A DNA stretch of 64,000 nt, from positions 223,124 through 287,123 of the forward strand of contig DATKWU010000009.1 of the NCBI GenBank assembly GCA_035529375.1, read 5' to 3'. The position numbers were made by a program, and so were the translations under genes. This document shows positions 1,010 to 59,990 of this stretch, one piece after another. The DNA comes from Patescibacteria group bacterium (GTDB lineage: Bacteria > Patescibacteriota > Microgenomatia > PFEM01 > JAHIFH01). Numbering within the stretch: the stretch's first letter is position 1; every line of letters starts with the position of its first letter. Below the pieces are notes generated by a model. The model did no database searches. It was given only the letters and a program-made list of their open reading frames with translations, and was not told the origin of the DNA.

Positions 1010-3082
1010 TTATTGTTGGGAGACAACTTGAGAGGCAAGATATTCTTCAGGATCTTTAATTAGAACTTCTCGGGGTTTTGAACCTTCAGCCGAACCAACA
1101 ATACCAACTCTTTCTAATTGATCAATAATTCTGGCTGCTCGGGCATAGCCAACTTTCAAACGCCGCTGGAGTAAAGAGGCCGAAGCCCGTTCATAGCGAC
1201 AGACTGTCCGAACCGCATCATCAAAGAGTTCATCTCTTTCTTGGATTTCACCACCTATCACCGTTCCTGCTTTAGTTGGCATTTTGGTTACTTCCTCAGT
1301 GTATTGAGGAGCAACACCGGCTTTTTTAAGAAAACCAATTAATTTCTGAATTTCTGGTTCAGAAACAAGGGTTCCTTGAATTCGTGTTGGTTTAGCTTGA
1401 TCTGGAGGAATATAGAGCATGTCACCTCGTCCTAAAAGTTTCTCTGCTCCCGGCATATCAATAATCACTCTCGAATCAACTTGAGAAGAAACATTAAAAG
1501 CAATTCTGCAGGGAATATTAGCTTTAATCAAACCCGTAATCACATCGACCGAAGGCCGCTGGGTAGAAATAATTAAATGGATACCGGTAGCTCGGGCCAT
1601 TTGGGCAATTCGACAGATAACGTCTTCGACTTCGGCCGGAGCAAACAACATAATATCAGCCAATTCATCAATAATAATTAGAATATAGGGAAGAGCTGAA
1701 AAACCTGAAAGTTCATTGTAGGCATCAATGTTCCGCACTCCTACTTCAGCAAATAATTTATAGCGACGTTCCATCTCGGAAATAGCCCACTTTAAAGCCG
1801 AAATCACTTTTTCTGGATCAACAATTACTGGGGTTAACAAATGAGGAATCCCATTATATTGGGTTAATTCCACTCGTTTAGGATCAACTAGGATGAATTT
1901 GACTTCAGCTGGAGAAGCTCTAAAAAGGATGGCAGCAATAAAAGAGTTAATACAAACTGACTTGCCTGAACCAGTGGCGCCAGCGATAAGAACATGAGGC
2001 ATTCGGTTAATATTATCTACCACTGAATCACCAGAAACATTCAGACCTAGAGGTATCGTCAGTCTGGATTTAGCTTTTTCCATTTGATCTGAAGTTAACA
2101 TTTTCTTGAGAGTCACAAATTCAGGACTTCGGTTAGGCACTTCAATCCCCACTAACGAGCGTCCAGGAATTGGAGCTTCAATTCTAATTTGACCAGTCGG
2201 CGCTGCCAAAGCTAAAGCTAAATCATTAGCTAATGTAGTAATCTTAGAAAGTTTCGTTCCTAAAGCAATTTCCAAAGCATATTGAGTCACGGCCGGCCCA
2301 AGATTAACCTCAGCCACTCGAGCGGCCACGCCAAAGGACTCTAAAGTCTTCTCAATGAGATCAGCGTTCTTTTTAATATCACCCCGGTCGGCTTTACCAC
2401 TAACAGAATCAGCTAAAAGAGATAAAGGCGGAAATTCCCAAACGCCTTCCTCGGCAGGCAAATTAGTCACCAAAGAGGACGTTAATTCTTCTTCCCTCTT
2501 TTGTGATTCTGATTTAACGGCTTCTTTTGACCCTCCACTTCTAATTTCTAAATCCCCTGTCGCTAATTGACGACGGCTAGAAACCTTTTTAAGACCAGCG
2601 CTCAATTGGCGAATTCTGGTAATAAATTTCATTAAAAAGAGAACGATTTCTTCTAAAGAAGTATTAAAAACCACGACAAAACCAATAAAAACAAAACCCA
2701 TTAAAACAAAGAAGGCACCAAAAGCACTAATTAAACCAGCTAGTTGATACCAAATTTGGGAACCAATCAAACCCGTTCGAGTTAAACTGATAAGAGCAAT
2801 CGCTAAAACAACGGAACCAACAAAAACGTTAGGACGAGTGATTCGCCAGCGCAAGCGGGCCATCATCAAGCCTGCTGTCATTAAAAGAAAAGGCAAAAGA
2901 ACTGCTCCCCAACCAAAATAATAAATAAAGACTTGAAATAATTTTGTCAGTAATGTCCCTTGGCGGGAAAAAGAAAAGACAATAATTGCAGCCAAAGAAA
3001 AGAGAAAAACACTGGAAATCGTATAAAGAGTGTCCTTTTTTAGGTTTAATTTAAATGGTTTTTTTCTTCTGCCTCTGGCCAT
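1010..3082 (-). CDS. ftsK: DNA translocase FtsK/SpoIIIE
   Basis: 690 aa; N-terminal polytopic membrane region; Walker A GATGSGKSVCIN; FtsK alpha/beta motor; C-terminal gamma winged-helix (LLQRRLKVGYARAARIIDQLE). Confidence 0.9.
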   Translation of the reverse strand: MARGRRKKPFKLNLKKDTLYTISSVFLFSLAAIIVFSFSRQGTLLTKLFQVFIYYFGWGAVLLPFLLMTAGLMMARLRWRITRPNVFVGSVVLAIALISLTRTGLIGSQIWYQLAGLISAFGAFFVLMGFVFIGFVVVFNTSLEEIVLFLMKFITRIRQLSAGLKKVSSRRQLATGDLEIRSGGSKEAVKSESQKREEELTSSLVTNLPAEEGVWEFPPLSLLADSVSGKADRGDIKKNADLIEKTLESFGVAARVAEVNLGPAVTQYALEIALGTKLSKITTLANDLALALAAPTGQIRIEAPIPGRSLVGIEVPNRSPEFVTLKKMLTSDQMEKAKSRLTIPLGLNVSGDSVVDNINRMPHVLIAGATGSGKSVCINSFIAAILFRASPAEVKFILVDPKRVELTQYNGIPHLLTPVIVDPEKVISALKWAISEMERRYKLFAEVGVRNIDAYNELSGFSALPYILIIIDELADIMLFAPAEVEDVICRIAQMARATGIHLIISTQRPSVDVITGLIKANIPCRIAFNVSSQVDSRVIIDMPGAEKLLGRGDMLYIPPDQAKPTRIQGTLVSEPEIQKLIGFLKKAGVAPQYTEEVTKMPTKAGTVIGGEIQERDELFDDAVRTVCRYERASASLLQRRLKVGYARAARIIDQLERVGIVGSAEGSKPREVLIKDPEEYLASQVVSQQ

Positions 3083-3089
3083 TTTGACT

Positions 3090-4493
3090 CTAGCGGTGCT
3101 TTCTTCTATTTGATCTGGATTTTACCAAGTGAGTTTTTCCTATTAAAGGAGAACCTATTTTCACTTGGCCTTTAGCCGTCATTTCAACGGTATCATTTCG
3201 GTTCGGAAGAATAATTTCTTCCTCGCGATAACCCATTCTCTCGGCTAAAAGGGCATATTGTCTCATCTGACGAAAAGCGCCCCCAATTGGAACTAAATAA
3301 TAAGGTCGGGCTAAACCAATCATTAAGGCTAAATCTCCCTGAGCAGCATGGCCACTGACGTGAAGGTCATCAAGAATATCTGAATAAGCGACATCAGCTC
3401 CTTGGCGGGAAAGGTTATCTACTAGCTTATTAATCGCCAATTGGGTACCAGGAATATAATCTGGTGAAGAAAAAACCACTTTATCATCAGGCTGAATTTC
3501 CAGTCCTTTATATTCACCTCTGGTAATCCTATCTAAGGCCGAACCTGTCTGGGCTTGACTGCCAGCCACAAACAAGCTAACTTTTTCTTTTGGCAAACTA
3601 TTTAATTTTTTCATCGGCACAATTGTCTCCTTAGGAATATTCAGGTAGCCCAAACGGGAAGCGATCTTAAAAATTTTTTCAATCGACCGGCCAACTAAAA
3701 TCACTTTTCTATTATATTTTACCGAAACATTCAAAGCTTGCTGCCAACGGGAAACATTAGAAGAGATGGTGGTAATTAAAACTCTTCCTCGACAATTACG
3801 CATTTCTCTCTCCAAAGAGTCCTCAACCATGGCTTCAGAAAGAGTGAAGCCGGCTTTTTCACTCCGCAGGCAGTCAGAAACCAAACAAACAACACCTTGA
3901 TTACCAATGGTCGCGATTTTACCTACGTCAGAAATCGAACCCATTACCGGTGTCCAGTCAAATTTGTAGTCACCCATATGAAGAATCGTCCCGATAGGCG
4001 TTTTAATAGCAACCCCAAAAGTATCGGGAATCGAGTGAGTTAAATAAATAAAATCCAGATTAAAACTGCCCAAATTAACTTTTTCGCGAGAATCAATCAG
4101 GTTGATTTCAACTGATTGACCATATTCATCAAGCTTTTCCTTGATTAAGGCCGTTGTTAGGCGTGAAGCGTAGATAGGAATTTTTCGATTAAGCTTTGGT
4201 AGAATAAAAGGCAAACCACCATAATGGTCTTCGTGACCATGAGTAATGATGATGCCTTTAATTTTCTCTCGATTTCTAACCAAATAATCAACATCAGCCA
4301 CCAACAAATCACCTCGAGTCGTTTCTTCTTCAGGAAAACCAACGCCACAATCAATGATGAGAATTTCGTTATTGTATTGATAGGCAAACAAATTCTGGGT
4401 AACGGTTCCCCAGCCACCAAGAGAAATCAGCCTTAATCCTGACTGATTATTCTGTTTTCTTTTATTGTTTTTATGTCGTCTAAAAATATTCAT
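3090..4493 (-). CDS. rnj: Ribonuclease J (metallo-beta-lactamase / beta-CASP RNase)
   Basis: HGHEDH motif (ITHGHEDHYGGLPF); beta-CASP and C-terminal domain architecture; 467 aa. Confidence 0.85.
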   Translation of the reverse strand: MNIFRRHKNNKRKQNNQSGLRLISLGGWGTVTQNLFAYQYNNEILIIDCGVGFPEEETTRGDLLVADVDYLVRNREKIKGIIITHGHEDHYGGLPFILPKLNRKIPIYASRLTTALIKEKLDEYGQSVEINLIDSREKVNLGSFNLDFIYLTHSIPDTFGVAIKTPIGTILHMGDYKFDWTPVMGSISDVGKIATIGNQGVVCLVSDCLRSEKAGFTLSEAMVEDSLEREMRNCRGRVLITTISSNVSRWQQALNVSVKYNRKVILVGRSIEKIFKIASRLGYLNIPKETIVPMKKLNSLPKEKVSLFVAGSQAQTGSALDRITRGEYKGLEIQPDDKVVFSSPDYIPGTQLAINKLVDNLSRQGADVAYSDILDDLHVSGHAAQGDLALMIGLARPYYLVPIGGAFRQMRQYALLAERMGYREEEIILPNRNDTVEMTAKGQVKIGSPLIGKTHLVKSRSNRRKHR

Positions 4494-4506: not shown

Positions 4507-5130
4507 TTAAATTAATTTCATTTGTTTATCAGTTTCTTGTTCTTCAACAATTTTTTCTTCTGGGTGTCCTTCAAGAAAAACCTCTATTTTCTTGAAATCT
4601 TCTTTTACCTCCTCCATTATTTTACCACTTCTTAAAGCCGCGGCCGGATGATACATCGGAATAACAATATAGCGCTTACTTAAAAAATCGACGTATCTCG
4701 CCTGACCGTGAATTTGAGAAATTTTCTCATCAGGCAAAAATTTAGTCATTGAAAACCGACCTAAAGTCACAATAATTTTCGGCTGAATTACTTGAATTTG
4801 TTCATCTAAAAAAGACCGGCAAGCTTCAATCTCTTCTGGCAAAGGGTCACGGTTACCTAGTGGTCGATGTTTAATGACATTACCAATAAAAACTTCTTTT
4901 CTTTCCAGTTTAATTAATTGAAGTAGCTGATCCAATAGTTTCCCCGCGGCACCAACAAAAGGTAATCCTTGCTGATCTTCATGAAAACCAGGGCCTTCAC
5001 CAATAAACATCACCTCGGCATCAGGATTACCATCTCCAGGCACAGGATGAGTTGTTCCTTTATACAAACTACAACGGGTACATTCTGAAACCCGCCTTGC
5101 AATTTCTTCTAATTTCTCCGCTTTAGTCAT
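4507..5130 (-). CDS. Uracil-DNA glycosylase, family 4 (Fe-S type)
   Basis: N-terminal Cys cluster (CTRCSLYKG); motif A GEGPG...FVGAAGKLLD; motif B HPAAALR. Confidence 0.8.
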   Translation of the reverse strand: MTKAEKLEEIARRVSECTRCSLYKGTTHPVPGDGNPDAEVMFIGEGPGFHEDQQGLPFVGAAGKLLDQLLQLIKLERKEVFIGNVIKHRPLGNRDPLPEEIEACRSFLDEQIQVIQPKIIVTLGRFSMTKFLPDEKISQIHGQARYVDFLSKRYIVIPMYHPAAALRSGKIMEEVKEDFKKIEVFLEGHPEEKIVEEQETDKQMKLI

Positions 5131-5150
5131 TTAAACTGCATCTAAATAAA

Positions 5151-6227
5151 TTACCAAGTAGGTAAAAACTCTTTTACATTTTCACTGGTGATATGAAAAC
5201 TTCTACCTTTACCTTGGACAATCATTTTGGCTACTTTCCGACAGATACCGTTAATCGTTCTTTCTAAAGTTCGGATACCGGCATCATAACCTAAAGGCCT
5301 GACAATTTTTGGCCAAACGTCAGGATCAATTCTAATCGCCTCCTTGTCCAAACCAGTCTCTTGGATTGTTCTTGGTAAAACATAGTCCTTACTAATTTTG
5401 ATTTTTTCTTCATCTGTATAAGAGGGCATTTGGATTGGTTCCAAACGATCCATGACCGCCACCGAGATATTACTGGTATTATTGCAAGTAGCAATAAATA
5501 AAACTTCAGAAAGATCAAAAGAATAGTCAATAAAGTGATCACGAAAAGCCATATTTTGTTCGGGATCAAGCAATTCTACCAAAACACCCATAATGCTTGA
5601 CCGACCATCTTCGGTTACTCGATCAATCTCATCAAGAAGAAGAACTGAATTCTTTGTCCCGGTTCGCCGTAAAGCCTTAATAATCAAACCCGGTTCAGCA
5701 TCGGGTCGAATTCGGGATTGACCCCGCAGATCAAGGGGGTCACCTAAACCGCCAAAAGGAACCCGTGCAAACTTTCTCCCCATCGCTTCGGCAATCGAAT
5801 AAGCAATCGTTGTCTTCCCTGTTCCTACTAAACCAACAAAAAGGAGCATTGGTGCTCTCATAAACTTCAAAATACCTTCTTCCTTTCTTTCTTCTTTACC
5901 CTCTCTTTTTAATCTCATCACCGCTAAATACTCTAAAATTCTCTCTTTGGTTTCTTCTAAACCATAATGATTTTCATCTAAAATCTTTTTGGCCGCTTCC
6001 AAATCAAGCCTATCTTCACTTCTTTTCTCCCAAGGTAGGGCGGTTATCCAATCAATGTAATGCGAAACTCGCTCGTACTCGGTTGAATACTCACCATACT
6101 TAATCATTCGAGAGAGACGTTCAATTAAATGAAGACACTTTTCCTTTAATTCTGGGGGTAAACAAGCTGCTTCCGTCTTTTCTTCTAATTCAGCAATTTC
6201 TTTAAATAGGGCAGTTTTTTCAGGCAT
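5151..6227 (-). CDS. Lon-family AAA+ ATPase module without N-domain or S16 protease domain
   Basis: Matches the Lon coiled-coil/AAA+ region (YIDWITALPW, HYGLEETKERILEYLAV, Walker A GLVGTGKTT, sensor ATCNN...DRLE). The ORF ends about 20 aa after the AAA alpha-subdomain and no protease domain lies adjacent. Confidence 0.6.
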   Translation of the reverse strand: MPEKTALFKEIAELEEKTEAACLPPELKEKCLHLIERLSRMIKYGEYSTEYERVSHYIDWITALPWEKRSEDRLDLEAAKKILDENHYGLEETKERILEYLAVMRLKREGKEERKEEGILKFMRAPMLLFVGLVGTGKTTIAYSIAEAMGRKFARVPFGGLGDPLDLRGQSRIRPDAEPGLIIKALRRTGTKNSVLLLDEIDRVTEDGRSSIMGVLVELLDPEQNMAFRDHFIDYSFDLSEVLFIATCNNTSNISVAVMDRLEPIQMPSYTDEEKIKISKDYVLPRTIQETGLDKEAIRIDPDVWPKIVRPLGYDAGIRTLERTINGICRKVAKMIVQGKGRSFHITSENVKEFLPTW

Positions 6228-6271: not shown

Positions 6272-8449
6272 TTAATGACGTCGAGGCGGTCGACGATTCG
6301 GCCGTCGAGAAAAACCTGAAGAACTTCGCTGCCGAGGTGGTCGATAATCACTCGTTTGTTTGTCTGGCTGCTCCTTTAAAACCATGGTTAAATTAATTCT
6401 CCCCATATCATCAATCTCAGAGACCTTAACTTTAACCTTATCGCCAATCTTAACGACTTCATTAGGGTCCCTAACATATTGAGTTGACATTTTTGAAACA
6501 TGAACCAAACCATCTTTACCTGGTAAGATCTCGACAAAAGCCCCAAAAGGCTGGATTCGCTTGACTTCGCCTTCAAAAATCTCACCTGCTTCAACCTCTC
6601 GAGTCAAACCTTCAATTTTAGCCACAGCCATGTCCACCGCCGCTTTATCAGGTGCAGAAATATTAACTGAGCCATCGTCTTCGACATCAATTGCTGCCCC
6701 AGTTTCCTTAATCAATTCCCTAATAACACGTCCACCGGGACCAATCACTTCACCAATTTTATCTACAGGAATATGAAGAACTCTAATTTTAGGAGCGAAC
6801 TTGGAAATCTGAGCCCGAGAAGCAGGCAAAACAGTCATCATTTTTTTGAGAATAAAATTCCTTCCTTCTTTGGCTCGAGAAACAATCTCCTCGAATAATT
6901 TTAAATCAATACCTTGATTCTTAACATCCATCTGAACAGCCGTCATCCCTTTTTCTGTTCCCGCCAGTTTGAAATCTATATCACCATTAAAATCTTCTAA
7001 TCCTAAGATATCAGTCAAGATTACTTGTTTTCCCCCTTCTTCGATTAAACCCATGGCGATTCCGGCTACTGGTGCCTTAATAGGCGCTCCAGCGTCCATT
7101 AAAGATAAAGTTGAACCGCAAACAGCGGCCATTGAGGTGGAACCATTAGAAGACATTATTTCTGTTACCACCCGAATGGTATAAGGAAATTTATCTTCGG
7201 CAGGAATGACACTTAATAAAGCCTTTTCTGCCAAAGCCCCGTGACCAACTTCCCGACGCTTGGGCCAACCTACATAACCAATTTCTCCCATAGAAAAAGG
7301 CGGCATGTAATAATGATGAATGTAACGTTTGGTCTCCTCACCTTCCATGTTTTCAATTAATTGTTCTAAAGAAGGCGAACCCAAAGTGGTCACCGTCAGA
7401 GCTTGGGTTTGGCCACGTTTAAATATCGCCGATCCATGAGTCCGCGGCAATAAACCAACTTCGACCTCAATTGATCGAATCTCATCTGGTTTTCGACCAT
7501 CAATCCGTTTACCCTTATTGACAATTTGTTCTCTAATACTTTTCTTAATTAAATCATCGATAATTCGATTAATATCTTTTTTGTTCTCTTCACCAAATTC
7601 TTCCCCTAAAGCTTCTTTCACTTCACCGATTAATTCTCTTGCTTCATTTTTGGCCATACTCGTTAAAATCTGGTCAATTTGTTTAGTCGCAACTTCGGTT
7701 ACTTCCTTAACTAATTTTGCATTAACTTTTTTAGTTTCGACTGTTTGCTTCTTTTTACCAACTTTTTTAACTAATGATTCAATTAATTGAATCACCTCTT
7801 TTATTTCTTTTTGGGCAACATCAATTGCTTTGATAAGAATTTCTTCAGGCACTTCTTGGGCTGATCCTTCGATCATAATGGTCTTGTTCTCTTTTCCAGA
7901 AATAATCAAATCCATAATTGAATAACTTAAATCTTGGTAAGTAGGATTAATGACAAACGAACCTTCGCTATTTTTAGGAACATAACCAACTCTCATTGAA
8001 CCCACTGGTCCTTGCCAAGGAAGATCGGAAATAGCCAACGCGGCACTGGTCGCCCAAACTGCCGGCATATCAGGATCGTTCTCACCATCAACCGAAAGAA
8101 CGGTAATCACTACCTGAATATTATCCCGACAGTCCTTAGGAAATAATGGTCGAATAGAGCGATCAATTAAACGAGCTGTCAAAACAGCTTCGTCAGAAGG
8201 CCGACCTTCCCTCTTCACCCAACGGGAACCTTTAATCCGACCGCCAGCATAAAGACGTTCAACATACTCGACTTGAAGAGGCAAATAATCAAGACCTTCT
8301 TGAGGTTCTCCAGAGACAACGGTTGCGAGAACCATTGTATCACCGTAGCGAACTAAAACAGCGGCATTAGCCTGCTCGGCTAAAAGACCAACCTCTAAAG
8401 TTAATTTTTTGCCACCGATTTCTTTTGATTGAGAAACAGTTTTTATCAT
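6272..8449 (-). CDS. pnp: Polyribonucleotide nucleotidyltransferase (PNPase)
   Basis: 725 aa; two RNase PH domains, KH and S1 domains; basic R/P-rich C-terminal tail. Confidence 0.95.
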   Translation of the reverse strand: MIKTVSQSKEIGGKKLTLEVGLLAEQANAAVLVRYGDTMVLATVVSGEPQEGLDYLPLQVEYVERLYAGGRIKGSRWVKREGRPSDEAVLTARLIDRSIRPLFPKDCRDNIQVVITVLSVDGENDPDMPAVWATSAALAISDLPWQGPVGSMRVGYVPKNSEGSFVINPTYQDLSYSIMDLIISGKENKTIMIEGSAQEVPEEILIKAIDVAQKEIKEVIQLIESLVKKVGKKKQTVETKKVNAKLVKEVTEVATKQIDQILTSMAKNEARELIGEVKEALGEEFGEENKKDINRIIDDLIKKSIREQIVNKGKRIDGRKPDEIRSIEVEVGLLPRTHGSAIFKRGQTQALTVTTLGSPSLEQLIENMEGEETKRYIHHYYMPPFSMGEIGYVGWPKRREVGHGALAEKALLSVIPAEDKFPYTIRVVTEIMSSNGSTSMAAVCGSTLSLMDAGAPIKAPVAGIAMGLIEEGGKQVILTDILGLEDFNGDIDFKLAGTEKGMTAVQMDVKNQGIDLKLFEEIVSRAKEGRNFILKKMMTVLPASRAQISKFAPKIRVLHIPVDKIGEVIGPGGRVIRELIKETGAAIDVEDDGSVNISAPDKAAVDMAVAKIEGLTREVEAGEIFEGEVKRIQPFGAFVEILPGKDGLVHVSKMSTQYVRDPNEVVKIGDKVKVKVSEIDDMGRINLTMVLKEQPDKQTSDYRPPRQRSSSGFSRRPNRRPPRRH

Positions 8450-8455
8450 TAGAAA

Positions 8456-8725
8456 CTACTTAGACAACTTCAAATCGCTAATAACATCTTTATAGCGCTT
8501 TTCGTCCCTCTTTAATAAATAAGCTAATAATCTTCTCCTTTTAGAAACAAGCGAAAGCAAGCCTCGTCGGGAATGAACATCTTTTTTATGCTCTTTGAGG
8601 TGGCCGGTTAACTTTTTTACCTTCGCCGTCAACAAAGCCACTTGGACTTCAGGAGAACCCGTATCCTCTTTTGACTGAGCAAATTTCTTAATAATTCTCT
8701 TTTTTTCGTTGGTTGTTAAAGCCAT
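8456..8725 (-). CDS. rpsO: 30S ribosomal protein S15
   Basis: 89 aa; canonical S15 sequence (GSPEVQVALLTAKVKKLTGHLKEHKKDVHSRRGLL). Confidence 0.95.
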   Translation of the reverse strand: MALTTNEKKRIIKKFAQSKEDTGSPEVQVALLTAKVKKLTGHLKEHKKDVHSRRGLLSLVSKRRRLLAYLLKRDEKRYKDVISDLKLSK

Positions 8726-9602: not shown

Positions 9603-10502
9603 CTAAACACGGTCCTCACCTTTGTAGATTTTAGGCTCAAACCAATCAGGTTTTGGCTTCTCTATTTCCTCCTCTTCTTCTCTAGTTGGTTGCTTAAGAG
9701 CCGAAACTTTAGCAGGCATTGGTTTCAGAGGAGAGGTGCTTTTAGACTTTTTATTAGGCAATCTAACTTCTCGCCTTGCTCCCATTTTGAGACAAAGAGC
9801 GGCCGCTTCAAAGGTATCAGCACTCACTTTAGGTGAGGAAAATCGGTTGGTGGCTCGTTCAATTCCTTGAAAAAGATTAGTTCCAATATCCCTATCAGTC
9901 AATAATCTCAATAGTCCGATTAGTTTCGCCACTTCTTCAGAAAAGGAGGCGGCTGAAGGATCAACCAAGTTAATTTGGCCGTATTGTTGATTTCGAGAAT
10001 TATTATCTAAGTTAATAACCTGAGTCTCTTTAAAAGCTTCCTGATTATCTTTGTAAAGATTCCCTAAACTCTCTAAGGAACTAGCACCAATCGTAAAAAT
10101 CAAATCCACCTTCCCACCAGTGTAGGAAAATTCGACTTTATCTGAATCAAGAGGCGGATGACCAGGTCTAGGTTTAATCACTAAATTAAACTTACCATCT
10201 TCAATATTGTAACTGACCTTCTCAATCGCATCCTCAATATAATCAAAGGATATACTTAAGCTGTCTTTACCACCCTTAAGGCTATTTTCAATTTTATCAA
10301 CCCCGACGAGCGAAGAAAAACCAACCGTCATTTCGGTTGAACAGCCAATGTTTACTGATTTCTTGGTTGTTCCTAAAGAAAGATAGAGAGCCAAACCAGC
10401 TGCCACTTGATCAAAATTGGGATTTTGGGGCAAGGCAATAAAAACTGTTTGGGCAGTGGCAAGAGCGGATTGAATTTGAGAAGCCTGGCTTTGATTAATC
10501 AT
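9603..10502 (-). CDS. Hypothetical protein at the rbfA/truB/nrnA position; weak DHH-like N-terminus with degenerate catalytic motifs
   Basis: 299 aa between infB and xth. N-terminal VFIALPQNPNFDQVAAGLAL loosely resembles NrnA motif I (HxHxxPDxD) with D-to-N changes; no DHH or GGGH motifs. Confidence 0.25.
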   Translation of the reverse strand: MINQSQASQIQSALATAQTVFIALPQNPNFDQVAAGLALYLSLGTTKKSVNIGCSTEMTVGFSSLVGVDKIENSLKGGKDSLSISFDYIEDAIEKVSYNIEDGKFNLVIKPRPGHPPLDSDKVEFSYTGGKVDLIFTIGASSLESLGNLYKDNQEAFKETQVINLDNNSRNQQYGQINLVDPSAASFSEEVAKLIGLLRLLTDRDIGTNLFQGIERATNRFSSPKVSADTFEAAALCLKMGARREVRLPNKKSKSTSPLKPMPAKVSALKQPTREEEEEIEKPKPDWFEPKIYKGEDRV

Positions 10503-13662: not shown

Positions 13663-14550
13663 ATGTCTCCAAAGAAAAACTGGGCGATTATTTCTCTTGT
13701 TTTTGCTACCTTACTCTATGGTCTCTATGGTGTTTATTCTCGCCTAATTGGCCTTGATTTTGGTGTTTTTTATCAAAATTTCCTAAGAAATCTAATTGTA
13801 GCGGTTATTCTTATATTCTATTTATCCCTCAAAAAAGAATGGCAACGAATCAAAATTAAAGACATCAAATGGATTATTGCCTGGGTTTTTAGTGGCTTTA
13901 TTGCGATTATCACAATCTTTATTGCCTTCAATAAAATTCCTATTGGTATGGCTCTTTTCATCTTCTATGCCGGCTCAATCATTAGTGGTTACTTAATTGG
14001 TAGTCTATTTTTTGGCGAAAAATTATCAAGAATTAAACTTTTTTCAATTATTTTAACTTTTATCGGTCTTGCTTTAATCTACTCCCTGAATTTCGAAATA
14101 AACAAGTCGAAATATCTTCTCTTCGCTCTAATTGCTGGTTTTTCAACCGGCATCTGGAACACGCTTTCTAAAAAGGTCTCAAATAAATATTCTCACATAC
14201 AATTAATTTTTATTGATGCCTTATTGCATGTTTTTTTAAGCCTCCCCTTAATATTTATCTGGAACGAAAAATTATCTTTCCCAAAACTATCAGTTCCCTG
14301 GGTAACCATTCTCGCTTTTGCTCTAACTCAAATAGTAGTAGTTAAGCTTATTATTTATGGCTTTAGGCATTTAGAAGCTCATCTTGGCACTTTAGTCATG
14401 CCTCTAGAAGTATTCTTTGGTGCTCTTTTTGGTTTTATTTTCTTTAAAGAAGTTCTTTCTTTTTACACAATCATTGGAGGTTTGATTATAATATCAGGGT
14501 TTATATTGCCAAACTTACTAATCAATCAAAAAGGCAAATCATCAGAGTAA
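13663..14550 (+). CDS. EamA/DMT-superfamily transporter
   Basis: 295 aa, about 10 TM in two repeated halves typical of EamA. Confidence 0.65.
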   Translation: MSPKKNWAIISLVFATLLYGLYGVYSRLIGLDFGVFYQNFLRNLIVAVILIFYLSLKKEWQRIKIKDIKWIIAWVFSGFIAIITIFIAFNKIPIGMALFIFYAGSIISGYLIGSLFFGEKLSRIKLFSIILTFIGLALIYSLNFEINKSKYLLFALIAGFSTGIWNTLSKKVSNKYSHIQLIFIDALLHVFLSLPLIFIWNEKLSFPKLSVPWVTILAFALTQIVVVKLIIYGFRHLEAHLGTLVMPLEVFFGALFGFIFFKEVLSFYTIIGGLIIISGFILPNLLINQKGKSSE

Positions 14551-15428
14551 AGTTCTTCTTCATTAACTTTTTTAGTTAATTCTTTGACCTTGTTTTTAGC
14601 AGGACAAAAACTCGTAAAAAGACAATATTTACAGAGTTTGCTTGGTCGGGGCTGCCAATCTGCAGTCTCTTTTATTTTCTCTATTTTCTCTAAAACTTTA
14701 TCTTTAATCACCTCGCTTTTCTTTTCTATTTTAAAGCTCTTTTTTTTACCTGATTTTAAAAAGAAAAAACTGGTTTTCTTGACTGGCTGGTCAAAATTTG
14801 ATTCCGCCAATAATTGGTAAAAATCCAACTGAAAGGGGTTGGTTTCTTCTTTTTTTGAGGTTTTAAAATCAATAATATGAAGGCTATCCTTATTCTTGGT
14901 AATCAAATCAAACTTACCGCTAATGTCATAATCATCAGTTAAGGGAACAATTAAATCCTGATAATCTTTGATTGAATGAAGAAAATCTTCGGTCGGCAGA
15001 TAATGAATGGCTGGATTTTCCTCAGCCATCTTTAAAAAATTTCTTAACATCCTAATTCCCTCAGCATAAACCCCTCTTTCTTCTTCAAGACTTTCAAACC
15101 CACCCCATTCTAATAAAGGTGGTTTTTTGTTCCACCTGGCTTCACTGAGCCAAGTTTCGGCTAATTTTTTCATTAAATTTTCTTTTGTTCGATGGGCTAA
15201 GGGCAGGTAATAATAAGAGGTAATCGCATTATGGACCGCTTTACCGAGAGTATGGAAAGAATAAATATTCTCTGGCATCTGTTTTAACTTGGTCTTCATC
15301 TTCCTTTTGACGGGATCAAGATAGGAAAAAAAATATTGTTGAGGACACTCCTCAAAAAGATTTAATTTAGTCGGAGAGTAAATCTTATCGTAATCAATTT
15401 TTTGTTGGTCTTTAACTACTTTAGTCAT
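14526..15428 (-). CDS. PD-(D/E)XK nuclease, Cas4/RecB-like with C-terminal Cys cluster
   Basis: N-terminal Cys (EECPQQYFF), IIDFKTSKK (D/EXK motif), C-terminal CKYCLFTSFC. Confidence 0.6.
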   Translation of the reverse strand: MTKVVKDQQKIDYDKIYSPTKLNLFEECPQQYFFSYLDPVKRKMKTKLKQMPENIYSFHTLGKAVHNAITSYYYLPLAHRTKENLMKKLAETWLSEARWNKKPPLLEWGGFESLEEERGVYAEGIRMLRNFLKMAEENPAIHYLPTEDFLHSIKDYQDLIVPLTDDYDISGKFDLITKNKDSLHIIDFKTSKKEETNPFQLDFYQLLAESNFDQPVKKTSFFFLKSGKKKSFKIEKKSEVIKDKVLEKIEKIKETADWQPRPSKLCKYCLFTSFCPAKNKVKELTKKVNEEELYSDDLPF

Positions 15429-21115: not shown

Positions 21116-21847
21116 CTAGACCTCTTTAAGAACTTCTTCTAGTAAATTGCCAAAATATTTGACCATCGGAATCACTCGAGGATAATCTAAACGCATCGGC
21201 CCAATCACTCCCAAAGAACCGCTTTTCTCTGGACCAGCATCAAACTTAACAAAAATCATACCGCAAGGTTCAAGAAAGTCATAACCCAATTCATCCCCAA
21301 GTAAAAGATGAATTTGCTCTTCACCAAAAGAATGGCTAAACAAGTTTAATAAGCGATTGGTTTCATCAAGCATTGAAAGAATGGCCCGAGTAACATCAAT
21401 ATCATAGAATTCGGGCATTTCCAAAATATTGGCATAACCAGCATGATAGACGTCACCTTTTTTGGTAGCGGCGACGGCCAAAGTCCGTGATCTTTCAGCC
21501 AAAGCTTTGGTGGCCTCGTGCATTAATTTGTCAAAATCAAACCGCGAATCCCAAACCTTTTCTTTGGCAGCCACTTCGTCAGCCACCGAAAGCTTTTTCT
21601 CTTCCATTAATTGATTAACATAAAATTTAAAAGCTTCTTTACTGGGAATTCGACCCGCCGAAGTGTGGGGTTGATGAAGATACTTCATTTTTGTCAAAGC
21701 GGCCATCTCATTTCTGACAGTGGCCGGCGAAACACCCAGTTCATACTTTTTCTCCAGTGTTCCTGAACCAATCGGCTCGGCCGATTCCATATACTCTTCA
21801 ATAATTGATTTAAGAATTTTAATTTGTCTATCAGTTAACTCTGCCAT
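21116..21847 (-). CDS. hrcA: Heat-inducible transcription repressor HrcA (short)
   Basis: N-terminal winged HTH (IGSGTLEKKYELGVSPATVRNEMAAL) and the conserved hrcA-grpE-dnaK-dnaJ order. Confidence 0.8.
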   Translation of the reverse strand: MAELTDRQIKILKSIIEEYMESAEPIGSGTLEKKYELGVSPATVRNEMAALTKMKYLHQPHTSAGRIPSKEAFKFYVNQLMEEKKLSVADEVAAKEKVWDSRFDFDKLMHEATKALAERSRTLAVAATKKGDVYHAGYANILEMPEFYDIDVTRAILSMLDETNRLLNLFSHSFGEEQIHLLLGDELGYDFLEPCGMIFVKFDAGPEKSGSLGVIGPMRLDYPRVIPMVKYFGNLLEEVLKEV

Positions 21848-21882: not shown

Positions 21883-21909
21883 TTAGCACTTTTATAACAT
21901 GACTGCTAA
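21883..21909 (-). promoter_or_regulatory. CIRCE operator (TTAGCACTT-N9-GACTGCTAA) overlapping the -10 of a TTGACA-N17-TATAAA promoter for the hrcA operon
   Basis: 8/9 + 8/9 match to CIRCE consensus TTAGCACTC-N9-GAGTGCTAA. Minus-strand -35 TTGACA is the reverse complement of 21914-21919; -10 TATAAA is the reverse complement of 21891-21896. Confidence 0.8.
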
Positions 21910-26320: not shown

Positions 26321-26866
26321 ATGACTGCCTCAAAAAGTAAAATTGAATTTTTACCCCAAGAAGATTGGGAAAAGACTCCTTTTGGTAAATTCCTCAAGTG
26401 GTTGTTAACAGTTGGTCGCTATATTGTTGTCTTTACTGAATTGATCGTGATTCTTGCCTTTATCTCCCGATTCAAGCTCGATCGTGATTTAACTGATCTT
26501 TATCAACTCATCGAACAAAAGCAAGCAATTATTCAAGCATCAGTCGATTTTGAAACTGATTTCCGCTTTCTCCAAAAACAACTAACCAGCATCCAAGGTT
26601 TAAGAAAAGAACAACTCAAAACTAATCAACTCTTAAAAGAAATTTCTGACTTAACTCCTATCGATGTTTCTTTCTCTAATTTAACCATTACTGGTGATAA
26701 AGTCGAATTTAAGGCTACCGCTTTATCTGAAGCGGGTTTAGCAACTTTTATTTATAATCTTAAAAAATCGCCAAGCTTTACTAACCTAAACATTGATAGT
26801 TTATCTCTAGGTAGTGAACAAGGCGTGGGAATTAGTTTTAGTCTTAACAGTCAGTTAATTAAATAA
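26321..26866 (+). CDS. PilN-like type IV pilus assembly protein
   Basis: Short cytoplasmic N-terminus, single TM, coiled-coil plus periplasmic domain; 181 aa; adjacent PilO-like gene. Confidence 0.4.
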   Translation: MTASKSKIEFLPQEDWEKTPFGKFLKWLLTVGRYIVVFTELIVILAFISRFKLDRDLTDLYQLIEQKQAIIQASVDFETDFRFLQKQLTSIQGLRKEQLKTNQLLKEISDLTPIDVSFSNLTITGDKVEFKATALSEAGLATFIYNLKKSPSFTNLNIDSLSLGSEQGVGISFSLNSQLIK

Positions 26867-27487
26867 ATGCCAAATACTTTACCTAATCGCTATCAGCGCT
26901 ATCGTCACTATTTCACCGGTGTCAATAATCTTTACAAGAAAAAACAAACAAAAGTTTACACCGGCGTTGTCCTTTCCCTGATAACGATATCTTTTTTTGG
27001 ATTTTTTGCGATTCGACCAACTTTAATTACAATCAGCGGTCTGATTAAAGAAATTAAAGACAAAAAAGCTGTCGTCGATCAAATGGACCAAAAAATTGAG
27101 AGTCTCACCCAAGCCCAAATAAACTACTCCCAAATTAAAGATGATCTTGACTTAGTCAACCAATCACTCCCTCTTGATCCAGATCTGTCAACTCTTGTCA
27201 AACAACTCGAGGCTTTGGCTCGACTTTCCTCAGTTAAAATTGAATCAATCCGATTCGAAAAAACCAATCTCCAAGGAGAAAAAAGTAATGAAGCCCAAAC
27301 CGTTAATTTTGACTTGGCTACCAGCGGTAATTATCAAAGTCTTAAGAACTTTCTCAGTTCACTAGATAATTTGAGGCGAATTATTGGGATTGATAGTTTT
27401 GCTTTCAAAACTTCAACTGAAGAAGAAACTCAAATCTTAATCTTAACTCTTAATGGTCACGCCTATTATTTAACCAGAGAAGAATGA
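26867..27487 (+). CDS. PilO-like type IV pilus assembly protein
   Basis: 206 aa; N-terminal TM, coiled coil, C-terminal ferredoxin-like region; PilO-like pattern. Confidence 0.45.
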   Translation: MPNTLPNRYQRYRHYFTGVNNLYKKKQTKVYTGVVLSLITISFFGFFAIRPTLITISGLIKEIKDKKAVVDQMDQKIESLTQAQINYSQIKDDLDLVNQSLPLDPDLSTLVKQLEALARLSSVKIESIRFEKTNLQGEKSNEAQTVNFDLATSGNYQSLKNFLSSLDNLRRIIGIDSFAFKTSTEEETQILILTLNGHAYYLTREE

Positions 27488-27801
27488 AAGATCTTAAACT
27501 CGGTAAAAATATTCTTATTATCTCAATCTTAACCTTATTGACAGTTTTTGCTTGGATTGGTTTCCAAGTTTACGGTGCCTATACCAAAACAACCATTCCT
27601 AAAATAATTAAAGAACTTATTCAACCCTTAAATCCACGAATCGAAGAATCAGTCATTAAAGAAATTAAAGAAAAATATCAAGTCCCTAGTGAGGAACTTA
27701 ATGTTGTTAGCCAACCTCCTGCCAGTCCCGAAACGGAAATGGAGGAAGAAGCTACCACTGGTCAAACGGCAACCCAAAGTGGTAATCTAGAAGAAGAATG
27801 A
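27484..27801 (+). CDS. Hypothetical small membrane protein with acidic C-terminus
   Basis: 105 aa; one TM; translationally coupled to flanking genes. Confidence 0.3.
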   Translation: MKDLKLGKNILIISILTLLTVFAWIGFQVYGAYTKTTIPKIIKELIQPLNPRIEESVIKEIKEKYQVPSEELNVVSQPPASPETEMEEEATTGQTATQSGNLEEE

Positions 27802-29135
27802 GAAAACGGATACCAACCGTTATTGGTTTAATTATTTTGATTGTCGGCATGACCGCCGCCGTTTTTTTGATTAACCGTAGTACCCATTGGTTTTCTCGAG
27901 CCGCTCCAGGCGCCGCGCCAAAACAAATTAAATTTACTAACATCACTGATAGTAGTTTTTCAGTTTCTTGGATAACAGACGAATCAACTTCAGGCTTTTT
28001 AAAATATGGTCCAAACAATAAAATTGACCAAACATCCAGAGACGATCGAGATGAGCTTACTGGTAAAACCGGCAATTATACTACCCATCACATCACTCTT
28101 CGCAATCTAAAACCAAATACGACTTATCAATTTCAAATTGGCTCGGGAGGCAGTTCGTTTGATAACAATGGCCAGAATTACCAAGTGACAACCGCCGCAA
28201 CCCTAACCGCCCCCTCACCACCAAGTGATGTTGCTTACGGCACGATTAATGATCAGGCCGGTTCGCCAGCTGACGGCTTGATTGTCTATTTCTCTTTGCC
28301 CGGCGCTGTTACCCAATCGACCCTAACCAAGTCTTCTGGTAATTGGGTTGTTCCTTTAAATTTGGCTCGTTCAGAGGATTTAAAAAACTATGCCCAGTAT
28401 GATTCTCAGGCAACGATTGAAGATATTCTTGTTCAAGGAGGAGCAAAGGGAACAGCCACAGCGGTCGTCACGACCAAAAATGATAGCCCGGTTCCTACGA
28501 TCACCCTGGGTGAAAATCATGATTTTAAAGGTACCGTCACAACAGATGAAACTGATAAAACAACTGGTTCCTCAAAGTTTAATTTAGAAGACAGCGATTC
28601 CACTCCCTCATCTGACAAAGTAGAAATCATTAATCCTGAAGATGAGGAAGGTATTAGTACCCAAAAACCAGAAATCCAAGGAATTGGCCCGGCCGGAGCT
28701 ATTCTTAATATTACCATTGAATCTTCAAAAACCTACACCGGCACCATTGTTGTTGATGATTTTGGTAATTGGAACTGGACACCACCAGCTGATTTAGAAC
28801 CAGGCGAACACACAGTTACCATCAATTATCAAGATGAAAACGGTCTACTACAAACTCTTTCTCGTACTTTTATTGTCTTAGCCGCCGGTGAAGATGGTTT
28901 GCCGGCTCTTGAGGCAACTCCATCAGGAACAGCCACACCCTCACCAACACCTTCTCCATCGGTCAGCCCTTCACCCAGCGTCAGTCCGAGTGGTCGAGTT
29001 TCAATACCTTCAACTGAAGGCGGTGTTCCTGATTCTGGTTACTTGACACCTACTTTTTTAGTCTTCATAATGGGATTAGTTCTGATTACCTTTGGACTAT
29101 TTAGTAATATTTTGCTTAAGAAGAAAGTTTTCTAG
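27798..29135 (+). CDS. Cell-surface protein with fibronectin type-III domain and C-terminal Pro/Thr/Ser-rich linker plus TM anchor
   Basis: Signal-anchor; Fn3 (TNITDSSFSVSW...HHITLRNLKPNTTYQFQI); TPSPTPSPSVSPSPSVSPS linker; terminal hydrophobic helix plus KKKVF. Confidence 0.5.
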   Translation: MRKRIPTVIGLIILIVGMTAAVFLINRSTHWFSRAAPGAAPKQIKFTNITDSSFSVSWITDESTSGFLKYGPNNKIDQTSRDDRDELTGKTGNYTTHHITLRNLKPNTTYQFQIGSGGSSFDNNGQNYQVTTAATLTAPSPPSDVAYGTINDQAGSPADGLIVYFSLPGAVTQSTLTKSSGNWVVPLNLARSEDLKNYAQYDSQATIEDILVQGGAKGTATAVVTTKNDSPVPTITLGENHDFKGTVTTDETDKTTGSSKFNLEDSDSTPSSDKVEIINPEDEEGISTQKPEIQGIGPAGAILNITIESSKTYTGTIVVDDFGNWNWTPPADLEPGEHTVTINYQDENGLLQTLSRTFIVLAAGEDGLPALEATPSGTATPSPTPSPSVSPSPSVSPSGRVSIPSTEGGVPDSGYLTPTFLVFIMGLVLITFGLFSNILLKKKVF

Positions 29136-30875
29136 ATGGCTGACCTGTCCCAAGATCAATCGCTAAAACCGAACCCAACCACAAATCCGCCTGGGGATAA
29201 TCAACCTTCCCAAAATCAGGATGTCCAGATACCAACGCCACCAACTGAACAACCGACTTCAACTCCTTCAACCAGTGATTCTTCTTTTCCACCAATCAAG
29301 GAAGAAGAAAAATTTGCTACTCCAAAACAAGAAGAAATCAAAAAGGAACTTTCCGAATTAGGGATTTCGCCTAAAGGTAGTTCTAAAAAAACTCGGGTTT
29401 TATTAGCTACCCTTGGTGTTCTCTTTTTGATTGCCACTTTGCCAGCCGCTGTTTATTTAGTCAAGCAAAGACAGGAGATAAAAACTGAAGCTTCAGTCGG
29501 TACTCTAGAACATTGCACTTTACCCAATTGTACTGTCACAGTTGGCCCTGATTATCTTTCCTTTGTAGCCAATGGGCACGGAACCAAAACTACCAAAACA
29601 CCCACGGTTAACCTAAATATTCCTACTGGTTCTACTGTTTTTAAAGCTTTTGCTATCTGGGGAGGAGAAAGAAACGCTGATAAACCTAAAGACAGAAATT
29701 TTAATTTAAGTATCAATAATCAGGCAGCTCAACCAGTTACGGCTGAAGCCGAATTTAATACTTACGTTGAACAATACAATAGTGCTCCTGAGGTATTTCT
29801 CGCCGACATTACTTCATTAATACCCACAAACACCACCCAATTTAATTTTAGGATCACGGGAGGATTTCTTGATGGTAGTTATGGTTCTGATGGTGGTGGT
29901 GGCGCTGGTTATGGTGTTGCCTATATTGTTGTTTACAAAAACCCTGCTAATTCTTACAACAAACTGGTGATTAAACTTTGGGGTGAATTTGTTTTCCGCA
30001 ATTTATCAACTAATATGGACTTTAATATTCATGATCGAAAAACAGGCTCCGATAAACTCAGAATGGCCTTTTTCTTTGGCGAGGGGGAAGGTTCGATGGT
30101 AGGTGACTCCCGACCTAACTACCTCTATTATAATGAAGCAAATAATCAACAATTAAATCCAACCGATGGGACCGCTTTTCCCGCTTGGGGTACTGACCCT
30201 AGTGATTGGTGGGATACCAGAATTACTGGGGATGATTTACCGAAAATCAGTGCCTTAAGTAACACAGCTACTTTTCATACTTATTCACCTAACCGGCCCG
30301 ATGAACCTAATGGTTTACTGGGTGACTCTATAGTCTGGGTTGGTGGTGTTGTAGAATACGAAGTGGAACCCCCAACATATGGCTGTTGGGACGAGTGTAG
30401 TACTCAAAGCAATTGTGATCTGGCTGGCTATATCTGTGCTATCCCTACTGGTGATACTAGTCAAACTAAAAGATGTCTTAATCCTCAATGTCCTAGTGAA
30501 GAGACTTGTGTTTGTACTCCTCCTCTTTGTACTAGCTTAACAGCTTCGCCATCAGCCGAAACTTTAGGTGAAAGTGATGAAGTTCAATTTATCTGCAAGG
30601 GTACGGCTGGAACAGATGACTCAATTGATCGAATTGAATTTAAGGTTCAGGTTAATGATGAATGGCAGACTCCAGTTGCAGCTGATAACATTACCGAATT
30701 AGATGGAGAATACGAAGGAAAAATCAACTACACCATTCCAAAAGCAGGTGACTACCAAGTTCAATGTCGGGTTTGCACCACTAATGAACAAATGACTTGT
30801 GACGACCAAGGTTGTGCCAGCAGTGCGACTATTAAATGCACTGAGTGGGGTAAAGCAGCAGTAGAGGGATCATAA
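29136..30875 (+). CDS. Large secreted/anchored hypothetical protein with Cys-rich C-terminal modules
   Basis: 579 aa; N-terminal Pro/Thr-rich region, TM, many Cys in the C-terminal 200 aa (CWDECSTQSNCDLAGYICAIP...). Confidence 0.4.
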   Translation: MADLSQDQSLKPNPTTNPPGDNQPSQNQDVQIPTPPTEQPTSTPSTSDSSFPPIKEEEKFATPKQEEIKKELSELGISPKGSSKKTRVLLATLGVLFLIATLPAAVYLVKQRQEIKTEASVGTLEHCTLPNCTVTVGPDYLSFVANGHGTKTTKTPTVNLNIPTGSTVFKAFAIWGGERNADKPKDRNFNLSINNQAAQPVTAEAEFNTYVEQYNSAPEVFLADITSLIPTNTTQFNFRITGGFLDGSYGSDGGGGAGYGVAYIVVYKNPANSYNKLVIKLWGEFVFRNLSTNMDFNIHDRKTGSDKLRMAFFFGEGEGSMVGDSRPNYLYYNEANNQQLNPTDGTAFPAWGTDPSDWWDTRITGDDLPKISALSNTATFHTYSPNRPDEPNGLLGDSIVWVGGVVEYEVEPPTYGCWDECSTQSNCDLAGYICAIPTGDTSQTKRCLNPQCPSEETCVCTPPLCTSLTASPSAETLGESDEVQFICKGTAGTDDSIDRIEFKVQVNDEWQTPVAADNITELDGEYEGKINYTIPKAGDYQVQCRVCTTNEQMTCDDQGCASSATIKCTEWGKAAVEGS

Positions 30876-31420
30876 TGAAAGAATTTTTAAAGAAAAATTG
30901 GCAAATTAGCCTGGTTGGTTTTACCACCTTAATCTTGGCGGTAATTGCTTTGGCTACTGCCTGGCGTTTATATCAGGTAGGTAAAGAACCAATTGCACCA
31001 ACTGCACCCACCTCTTTTCCTCAGGCTGACGAACCGGAAGAACCACTCGAAGAAGCAGTTTGTACCTTAGAATTCACAATAGAAGCCATTAGCTGTTACG
31101 ATGCTTGTACAGTAGATACTGATTGTCCTCAGAACTTCGGGGATGATGAAGTTGACCTAGTTTGTGATGAAGATGAAAACATCTGTGTGAATGAGAGCTG
31201 TTCTGATGAAGATGACTGTGTATGTCCAGAAGAAAGCCACACACCTACACCGACTCCGAGCCCTTCACCTTCAGTAGCAGGTTCCCCTGTTCCTAGCCCG
31301 AGCCTAGTACCATCACCTTCACCTCAACAAGTTGAATTGCCAGAGGCAGGGATTATCTCACCAACAATCTTGGCGACTCTTGGAGGAATTATTCTTGTTC
31401 TGATTGGTCTTCTTCTTTGA
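30875..31420 (+). CDS. Cys-rich surface protein with Pro/Ser/Thr linker and C-terminal LPEAG-hydrophobic tail (sortase-signal-like)
   Basis: 181 aa; N-terminal TM; CxxC-rich core; ...PSPSPQQVELPEAGIISPTILATLGGIILVLIGLLL. Confidence 0.4.
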   Translation: MKEFLKKNWQISLVGFTTLILAVIALATAWRLYQVGKEPIAPTAPTSFPQADEPEEPLEEAVCTLEFTIEAISCYDACTVDTDCPQNFGDDEVDLVCDEDENICVNESCSDEDDCVCPEESHTPTPTPSPSPSVAGSPVPSPSLVPSPSPQQVELPEAGIISPTILATLGGIILVLIGLLL

Positions 31421-42413: not shown

Positions 42414-42422
42414 CGTGAAGAG

Positions 42423-59988: not shown

Positions 59989-59990
59989 TT

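Follow-up and report, generated by a model that had tools for sequence, protein, structure and literature searches.

We analyzed a 64-kb stretch of contig DATKWU010000009.1 from a Patescibacteria group bacterium (hereafter the window), in which a gene on the reverse strand codes for a 358-residue AAA+ ATPase related to the protease Lon (LonA). An earlier note, drawn from the sequence, had described this protein as the coiled-coil and AAA+ module of Lon, devoid of both the N-terminal LON domain and the protease domain, and profile searches bear this description out. Pfam detected only AAA (PF00004, residues 128-265, E 4e-17) and Lon_lid (PF22667, residues 290-340, E 2e-12), and at E<=1 the protein matched neither LON_substr_bdg (PF02190) nor the S16 protease domain Lon_C (PF05362). 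The NCBIfam model TIGR00763, "endopeptidase La", was matched with an E value of 3.5e-96 over positions 255-568 of its 795 only, with a score of 323 bits against a cut-off of 608, and NF008053 was matched with 255 against 891. The motifs that the note had quoted, namely YIDWI..PW, HYGLE..K.RILEYLAV, Walker A and B and the sensor residues, are all found in the protein. Its C-terminus, estimated in the note at about 20 residues after the alpha subdomain, lies 18 residues past the Lon_lid match, and an aromatic residue is conserved at this end in the family (..FLPTW).

Identity to LonA amounts to 38-45% and extends across the whole protein. The AlphaFold (AF2) model has a predicted local distance difference test (pLDDT) of 81 and a predicted template modeling score of 0.75, with helices at residues 2-20, 25-43, 49-63, 76-86 and 91-111. 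Residues 1-122, which align to residues ~250-330 of E. coli Lon, represent the C-terminal part of the region of LonA defined as HI(CC) (PMC6722904). The closest solved structures are those of LonA and LONP1, the best being that of B. subtilis (3m6a, E 4e-81), and Foldseek searches with the model gave TMq values of 0.77-0.82 to LonA/LONP1 ATPase modules and a TMt of 0.82 to the E. coli Lon fragment 235-584 (PDB 6n2i), a crystallized fragment that spans the same region as the 358-residue protein. That fragment was obtained by limited proteolysis, and it packs as a hexamer with ADP bound (PMC6722904). What remains of Lon here is exactly the stable unit of LonA: three-helix bundle, nucleotide-binding domain and lid. 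The protein belongs to the HCLR clade of the AAA+ superfamily, as it possesses the P-loop NTPase core, Walker A and B motifs, the trans-acting arginine finger and the helical lid. Four defining features of LonA are missing, i.e., the N domain, the S16 domain, the pore-loop aromatic and a score above the curated cut-off.

To analyze the ATPase site and the pore loops, 16 short proteins were aligned with 17 full-length ones, and residues were then counted in 135 short and 80 full-length sequences; the tip of pore loop 1 was tabulated over 77 species-level loci. The Walker A lysine, the Walker B Asp-Glu pair, the sensor-1 asparagine, the arginine finger and the sensor-2 arginine are each present in 135 of 135 short proteins. 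The pore loops are remodelled. Pore loop 1 follows the family pattern SR-x-[R/H/K]-PDAEPG, as opposed to RRTY[IV]GAxPG in Lon, with newly conserved Ser171, Asp176 and Glu178 at positions that are Arg, Gly and Met or Leu in Lon. The tyrosine position of this loop is aromatic in all 80 full-length Lons; over the 77 loci, it is occupied by Arg (27), His (16), Lys (12), Tyr (6), Phe (6), Leu (3), Ser (3), Ile (3) or Gln (1). Constraint at this position has been lost, yet the aromatic residue has not disappeared throughout, and the idea of a family wholly devoid of the pore-loop tyrosine was ruled out by the 12 of 77 loci that keep Tyr or Phe. In pore loop 2, the stretch that matches D[FYW]RGDPsSALLE of Lon reads EDGRSSIMGVLVE.

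In the LonA protein MtaLonA, Tyr397 of pore loop 1 and Trp431 of pore loop 2 touch the translocating polypeptide, and degradation needs both (PMC8503904). In the 358-residue protein, Arg174 stands at the position of the gripping tyrosine, next to Asp176 and Glu178, which are newly conserved, and Gly208 takes the place of the aromatic in pore loop 2; canonical threading of polypeptides by aromatic paddles therefore appears to have been lost, and a classical threading unfoldase is unlikely. The earlier note had proposed a stand-alone Lon-like unfoldase or chaperone; the stand-alone architecture holds, and the same two replacements make the term "unfoldase" doubtful.

Other residues set the family apart from Lon. 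Leu133 and Thr140 in the Walker A region and Ile212 and Met213 in pore loop 2 are conserved specifically in the family, as is VRPLGYD (Pro311-Leu-Gly-Tyr-Asp315) beside sensor 2, where Lon has YTRE; L312, G313 and D315 represent family-specific changes of the interface. The Lys/Glu-rich insertion is absent from the 17 full-length Lons aligned, and pLDDT falls below 50 at residues 113-123. The net charge of the family is 0, versus +3 in Lon, for the pore-loop-1 segment, and +1 versus +4 for the lid; a pore that threads nucleic acids was not retained as a candidate, as these charges give it no support. The features of the locus are collected in Table 1.

Table 1. Features of the Lon-type ATPase gene and its neighbors in the window
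Feature	Coordinates	Strand	Remarks
ftsK	1010-3082	-	Downstream, co-oriented; conserved neighbor across the family
RNase J gene (rnj)	3090-4493	-	Downstream, co-oriented; conserved neighbor across the family
udg	4507-5130	-	Immediately downstream, co-oriented; UDG superfamily PF03167, E 2e-35
Gap between ATPase stop codon and udg start	5131..5150	-	20 bp; no terminator-like site
Stand-alone Lon-type AAA+ ATPase gene	5151..6227	-	358 aa, ATG start; three-helix bundle, nucleotide-binding domain and Lon lid; no N domain, no S16 protease
Lon-type lid (alpha subdomain, PF22667)	5208..5360	-	Includes sensor-2 DAGIRTLER (Arg319; nt 5259-5285)
Arginine-finger segment MDRLE (Arg261)	5439..5453	-	Trans-acting residue of ring-forming AAA+ ATPases; Arg in 135/135
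Sensor-1 segment IATCNN (Asn249)	5478..5495	-	Asn in 135/135
Remodelled pore loop 2, VTEDGRSSIMGVLVE	5574..5618	-	Lon: ..D[FYW]RGDPsSALLE; Gly208 for the aromatic, Ser-Ser-Ile for GDP
Walker B, LLLDEID	5622..5642	-	Asp199-Glu200 invariant, 135/135
Remodelled pore loop 1, LRGQSRIRPDAEPG	5688..5729	-	Lon: IRGHRRTY[IV]GAMPG; Arg174 at the position of the translocating Tyr
Walker A, GLVGTGKTT	5808..5834	-	Lon: GPPGVGKTS; Lys138 invariant; G..G.GKT in 135/135
Lys/Glu-rich insertion before strand beta1, residues 106-123	5859..5912	-	8-13 residues, family-specific; predicted disordered
Residues 1-122, C-terminal three helices of the LonA HI(CC) region and linker helix	5862..6227	-	Motifs YIDWI..LPW and HYGLE..KERILEYLAV
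Gap between pnp stop and ATPase start codon	6228..6271	-	44 bp; no promoter-like or terminator-like site
pnp	6272-8449	-	Immediately upstream, co-oriented; conserved neighbor across the family
rpsO	8456-8725	-	Upstream, co-oriented; conserved neighbor across the family

The distribution of the gene was determined by a species-level scan with one genome per GTDB species, which yielded 284 relatives; the best 80 loci were fetched, and taxon labels were taken from record titles. An open reading frame (ORF) of 343-433 residues with the same architecture and 48-98% identity was found in 75 of these 80 loci. The other five comprise an artefact caused by a run of N, two genes cut by contig ends and two ordinary Lons of 785 and 827 residues, with the pore-loop sequence RGHRRTYIGA and 42% identity, and the boundary between the short family and true full-length Lons is sharp. 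An apparent fusion with polynucleotide phosphorylase (PNPase) in one locus (L052, a 1104-aa ORF) was discarded as an artefact, a masked run of N joining two reading frames. The closest 120 clusters in a database of 5.8 billion proteins all consist of AAA and Lon_lid only (120/120), with lengths of 346-374 residues and identities of 68-100%; NCBI names them "AAA family ATPase", and IMG "ATP-dependent Lon protease" (P0008, P0012 and P0018 among others). When 1.84 billion representatives were searched exhaustively with phmmer, only a few short ones (42-59% identity) preceded the normal Lons (42-45%).

The credible labels of the carriers are Candidatus Gottesman-, Shapiro-, Ames- and Daviesbacteria, "Microgenomates", WWE3, Dojkabacteria and one "Saccharibacteria". 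Many metagenome-assembled genomes of the third-party annotation type (L010, L012-L014, L017, L019 and many others of L010-L089) that are titled Gammaproteobacteria, Pseudomonadales or Bathyarchaeia carry the gene in a Microgenomates rpsO-pnp-X-rnj-ftsK setting; these titles are almost certainly wrong taxonomic labels. The gene represents a strongly conserved family of ATPase-only Lons, apparently undescribed so far, in ultra-small bacteria of the Microgenomates type.

Comparisons with four close relatives gave ratios of nonsynonymous to synonymous substitution rates (dN/dS) of 0.024-0.058 for the ATPase gene, with dS near saturation save in the closest pair. For the same pairs of genomes, dN/dS was 0.07-0.09 for pnp, 0.07-0.09 for rnj and 0.10-0.16 for udg, and the amino acid identity of the ATPase was consistently above those of PNPase, RNase J and UDG. 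Purifying selection on the ATPase gene is stronger than on the adjoining pnp and rnj. Longer members of the clade reach 669 residues, and their extra parts are low-complexity tails rich in Gln, Pro, Ser or Asn. Such tails, either Gln/Pro- or Ser/Asn-rich, occur at either end of the ATPase (residues 1-360 of P0145, 351-548 of P0166 and 1-145 of P0147). That the longer members might harbor degenerate protease or N domains (the C-terminal 195 residues of P0166, the N-terminal 360 residues of P0145, P0147 and P0139) was rejected, as no Pfam or custom hidden Markov model (HMM) matched these parts. The PADLOC defence models gave only generic AAA matches to the ATPase (E 1e-5 to 6e-4), and membership in a defence system was dismissed in view of these matches and of the housekeeping genomic context.

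The missing Lon domains and possible peptidase partners were searched for in the window and ~20 kb beyond it (about 85 kb in all) as well as 6-10 kb on either side of related loci. Using tblastn with the N and protease domains of 17 full-length Lons, nothing credible was found in the window or in loci L001-L009, and no DGPSAG-type motif of the catalytic serine was present in the six frames of the window. An HMM built from 70 Lon N domains matched neither the 358-residue protein nor the longer family members, and the matches of an HMM built from 70 Lon C-termini overlapped the lid only. The ORF cannot be extended upstream, and because the flanking gaps measure only 44 and 20 bp, there is no room for remnant domains. 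The earlier note had envisaged a frameshift or assembly error hiding a contiguous S16 domain; no frameshifted remnant was found in any frame. Pfam gene tables of six related contigs revealed neither an S16 domain nor a peptidase partner within 10 kb of the gene, and those for the rest of the window revealed no partner, the M23 peptidase encoded some 50 kb away being unrelated. No full-length Lon was seen in any fetched locus of the candidate phyla radiation (CPR), L010-L089 having been scanned for the neighbor genes of the window only and not for S16. The gene context of P0204, a candidate full-length Lon of CPR bacteria, was not diagnostic. Recurrent weak tblastn matches (E about 0.01) between the Ser/Lys region of Lon_C and a part of the RNase J gene (3195-3470, reverse strand; ...LVPIGGAFRQMRQYALLAERMG...) were set aside. 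We judged this short "PIGG"-type stretch to be a chance similarity, as Pfam explains the gene fully as RNase J. A literature search retrieved no description of a protease-less Lon ATPase, nor of Lon in CPR bacteria.

The note had identified the downstream gene as that of UDG, which its Pfam match confirms. The order (hrcA-grpE-dnaK-dnaJ...) nusA-infB-ORF-...-rpsO-pnp-X-udg-rnj-ftsK-HTH-...-alaS, in which X is the ATPase gene, is common to the window and three contigs with identities of only 72-73%. Over the 77 loci, the upstream neighbor is pnp in most cases, with at most 221 bp between the pnp stop codon and the ATPase gene in 41 of 58, and the next recognizable gene downstream is rnj in 44 and udg in 25. 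This placement between pnp and (udg-)rnj is seen in most members of the family, from 48 to 100% identity. Relocated copies are found beside rnj without pnp (L072, L075 and L077), head-to-head with groES-groEL (L047 and L009, one subclade) and next to ndk (L079). A promoter and terminator scan detected no site in either gap that flanks the ATPase gene and a promoter-like site just upstream of rpsO, with scan counts not enriched over shuffled sequences in either case. The empty gaps hint weakly at co-transcription of the pnp-ATPase-udg stretch.

The adjacency to groES-groEL in one subclade raised the idea of heat-shock control through HrcA and its operator, the controlling inverted repeat of chaperone expression (CIRCE). 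An inverted repeat of this type, TTAGCACTT-N9-GACTGCTAA, is present at 21883-21909 (forward strand), with 2 mismatches and a chance expectation of 0.01, directly upstream of hrcA (21116-21847, reverse strand), the head of the hrcA-grpE-dnaK-dnaJ operon. With up to 3 mismatches allowed, no CIRCE precedes the groES-groEL pair of the window (58354-60332). The idea was abandoned, since there is no CIRCE near the ATPase gene or in L047 and L009, and the sole CIRCE of the window precedes hrcA. Two loci show rearrangements of another kind. Pairs of the toxin-antitoxin type stand by the ATPase gene in the rearranged locus L007 (1-732 and 7329-8002; AbiEii/AbiEi and HTH_17/PIN_3 according to Pfam), and a pair that resembles, as judged by eye, a nucleotidyltransferase and a HEPN protein adjoins it in L029 (5236-5968). 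Insertions of mobile modules appear to have disrupted the ancestral adjacency of pnp and the ATPase gene in both loci.

In neighbor-joining distance trees, the short proteins are monophyletic and form one clade beside bacterial LonA. When the tree is rooted on LonA, the aromatic pore-loop tip is retained in Dojkabacteria (TYPDAEP), in WWE3 (GFPASEP) and on several scattered branches, and large derived clades have other residues at this position: Lys in Daviesbacteria, His in Shapiro- and Amesbacteria, and Arg in Gottesmanbacteria and the clade of the window. The D-A-E signature is common to nearly all members. The N-terminal substrate-binding domain and the S16 domain would have been lost in the ancestor of the CPR group composed of Microgenomates, Dojkabacteria and WWE3. 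As aromatics survive on scattered branches while D-A-E is nearly universal, the domain loss and the Gly-to-Asp and Met-to-Glu changes probably came first, and the tyrosine would have been replaced later and repeatedly, by Lys, His or Arg, in separate clades.

We favor the view that the protein is a functional, stand-alone ATPase derived from LonA that acts without proteolysis as a remodeller, a chaperone-like factor or a regulatory motor, and we give this reading a probability of roughly 60%. The ATPase would assemble as a ring, as suggested by the strict conservation of the trans-acting arginine finger and by the helical-hexamer packing of the corresponding ADP-bound E. coli fragment. The putative ring would hydrolyze ATP, and since the protein has no peptidase of its own, the energy would serve non-degradative work, such as the remodelling, holding or release of a protein or ribonucleoprotein client, or the ring would function as a regulatory ATPase.

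Several points weigh against this reading. As 12 of 77 members retain Tyr or Phe at the pore-loop tip, translocation of polypeptides may persist in part of the family and may have been possible in its ancestor, and the Arg, His or Lys variants might grip the substrate in another way. LonA hexamers are partly stabilized by their protease domains, and a stable ring is thus not guaranteed for the module by itself. The conserved placement near pnp and rnj may simply be the relic of an old gene order that became frozen, with no bearing on function. Finally, an S16 or other peptidase partner could be encoded elsewhere in the genome, although we regard this as unlikely.

Such a partner would make the protein one half of a split Lon protease, its ring docking on a separately encoded S16 or other self-compartmentalized peptidase as ClpX does on ClpP and HslU on HslV. 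Two-component AAA+ proteases are common, the ATPase machinery is intact and under strong selection, an aromatic residue persists in pore loop 1 of 12 of 77 members, and the conserved C-terminal aromatic (..FLPTW) could in principle represent a docking motif. However, the partner genes of split systems are usually adjacent, and no S16 was found by tblastn in the window or L001-L009, nor in the Pfam tables of the six related contigs (10 kb on either side), L010-L089 having been scanned for neighbor genes only. Moreover, no S16 is fused to the longer family members, and the residues that mediate translocation are gone from both pore loops in most of the family, the 358-residue protein included. 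We consider a split protease improbable.

Another explanation takes the genomic setting as functional: the ring would join PNPase and RNase J and remodel RNA-protein complexes or RNA, playing the part of a DEAD-box helicase. In most of the family, only short gaps separate the gene from pnp on one side and from (udg-)rnj on the other, all in the same orientation, and it has remained beside rnj in L072, L075 and L077, in which pnp is absent. The pore-loop tip turned basic three separate times, and Lon ATPase modules bind nucleic acids. Nevertheless, pore loop 1 (0 versus +3) and the lid (+1 versus +4) are less basic than in Lon, and the adjacency may be historical, the order pnp...rnj...ftsK presumably being ancient and also found in Bacillus without a Lon-like gene. 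In addition, one subclade has moved beside groES-groEL and another beside ndk. On balance a role in RNA decay seems doubtful. In its most elaborate version, a Lon ring became fixed between pnp and RNase J after the loss of the protease, exchanged its tyrosine for Lys, His or Arg at least three times and now remodels RNA or ribonucleoproteins for PNPase and RNase J; this scenario is more doubtful still.

The protein might also be a specialized paralogue that modulates a full-length LonA of the same cell, e.g., by forming mixed rings or by competing for substrates. The kept three-helix bundle and arginine finger would in principle permit hetero-oligomerization, but the nearest full-length Lons in the library of 1.84 billion representatives are only 42-45% identical and not specifically related to it. 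No full-length Lon was present in any fetched CPR locus (6-10 kb on either side; L010-L089 scanned for the neighbor genes of the window only), and the interface changes L312, G313 and D315 argue for divergence from Lon rather than for co-assembly with it. We consider this possibility very unlikely. Lastly, a decaying lon gene, which the earlier note had offered as an alternative, or a normal lon truncated by an assembly or frameshift artefact would fit the reduced genome and a protein that corresponds cleanly to an inner segment of Lon; the same gene boundaries in 75 of 80 independent species-level assemblies, the uniform architecture of 120 of 120 clusters, dN/dS values of 0.02-0.06, the invariant catalytic residues together with newly conserved family-specific ones, the 44- and 20-bp gaps and the lack of S16 or LON-N similarity in any frame leave this explanation practically no chance.

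A few other features of the window and related contigs were recorded in the course of this work. A conserved ORF of 264-299 residues without Pfam match immediately follows infB in the window (9603-10502, reverse strand) and in L004 (5650-6519), L005 (5802-6662) and L006 (6809-7603), i.e., in 4 of 4 Microgenomates contigs examined, in a slot occupied by rbfA or truB in many bacteria. At 26321-31420 (forward strand), pilN-pilO are followed by four co-oriented ORFs of 105, 445, 579 and 181 residues without Pfam assignment, which may belong to a type IV pilus-like apparatus and have escaped annotation. A 960-residue fusion of a UvrD helicase and a PDDEXK nuclease (AddA-like) adjoins an RmuC-family gene at 39531-43436 (reverse strand); a second helicase of the UvrD/PcrA type is encoded at 34975-36789, and a Cas4-like PDDEXK_1 protein at 14526-15428. 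Just past the left edge of the window, an ORF of 743-789 residues with only a weak Baseplate_J match is found in L001 (18471-20840) and also in L004, L005 and L006. Its overlap with the 3' end of alaS measures 14-47 bp (47 bp in 3 of 4 contigs), and a sortase gene follows it, an arrangement kept in 4 of 4 contigs.

Lon is the archetypal single-chain fusion of an ATPase and a protease. Its known derivatives include LonC, a protease without ATPase, and iLON, which corresponds to the N domain, and we found no ATPase-only derivative described. As a core gene in a large part of the CPR that is more conserved than PNPase, the gene is evidently needed by the minimal cells that carry it. The family offers a natural experiment on a Lon motor without proteolysis and on the fate of pore loops once the degradation chamber is gone. 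The IMG label "ATP-dependent Lon protease" overstates proteolytic capacity, and metabolic reconstructions that use it would mistakenly assign a Lon protease to these organisms. The fixed place between pnp and RNase J provides a concrete and testable link between an AAA+ ring and RNA decay; if the RNA-decay motor were real, a bacterial degradosome would for the first time include an AAA+ ring, in the role of the DEAD-box helicase.

Comparison with known systems helps to delineate the new family. With LonA (TIGR00763, MEROPS S16) it shares the three-helix bundle, the nucleotide-binding domain, the region of the pre-sensor-1 hairpin and the Lon-type lid, as well as Walker A and B, sensor 1, the arginine finger and sensor 2. 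Unlike LonA, it has neither the N-terminal LON domain nor the S16 protease domain with its Ser-Lys dyad; its pore loops and Walker A are changed, a charged, disordered insertion precedes beta1, and VRPLGYD stands for YTRE. ClpX and HslU are likewise single-ring AAA+ proteins of the HCLR clade without a peptidase domain of their own. In both, the pore-loop-1 residue is aromatic and a dedicated peptidase partner exists, usually encoded by an adjacent gene, whereas the aromatic is not conserved in the new family, and no partner was found nearby in the window or L001-L009 by tblastn, nor in the six related contigs by Pfam. A proteolytically inactive Lon, the active-site mutant of yeast PIM1, reportedly supported the assembly of respiratory complexes, which provides a precedent for useful non-degradative work by a Lon ATPase. 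That protein carries an engineered point mutation and has every domain as well as unaltered pore loops, whereas the new family lost domains by evolution and has changed pore loops. The plant proteins iLON, or LON-like1-4, illustrate that single Lon domains can persist alone in non-proteolytic roles (PMC8889267); they retain nothing but the N domain, at the other end of Lon, and this domain is missing from the new family. Finally, LonC, for example that of Meiothermus taiwanensis, also arose naturally from Lon by giving up one of its two activities, and chaperone-like behavior has been reported for it (PMC3391209, PMC13069640). It is the mirror image of the new family: LonC keeps the protease next to an AAA-like domain that is dead as an ATPase, whereas the new family keeps the ATPase site and has dispensed with the protease.

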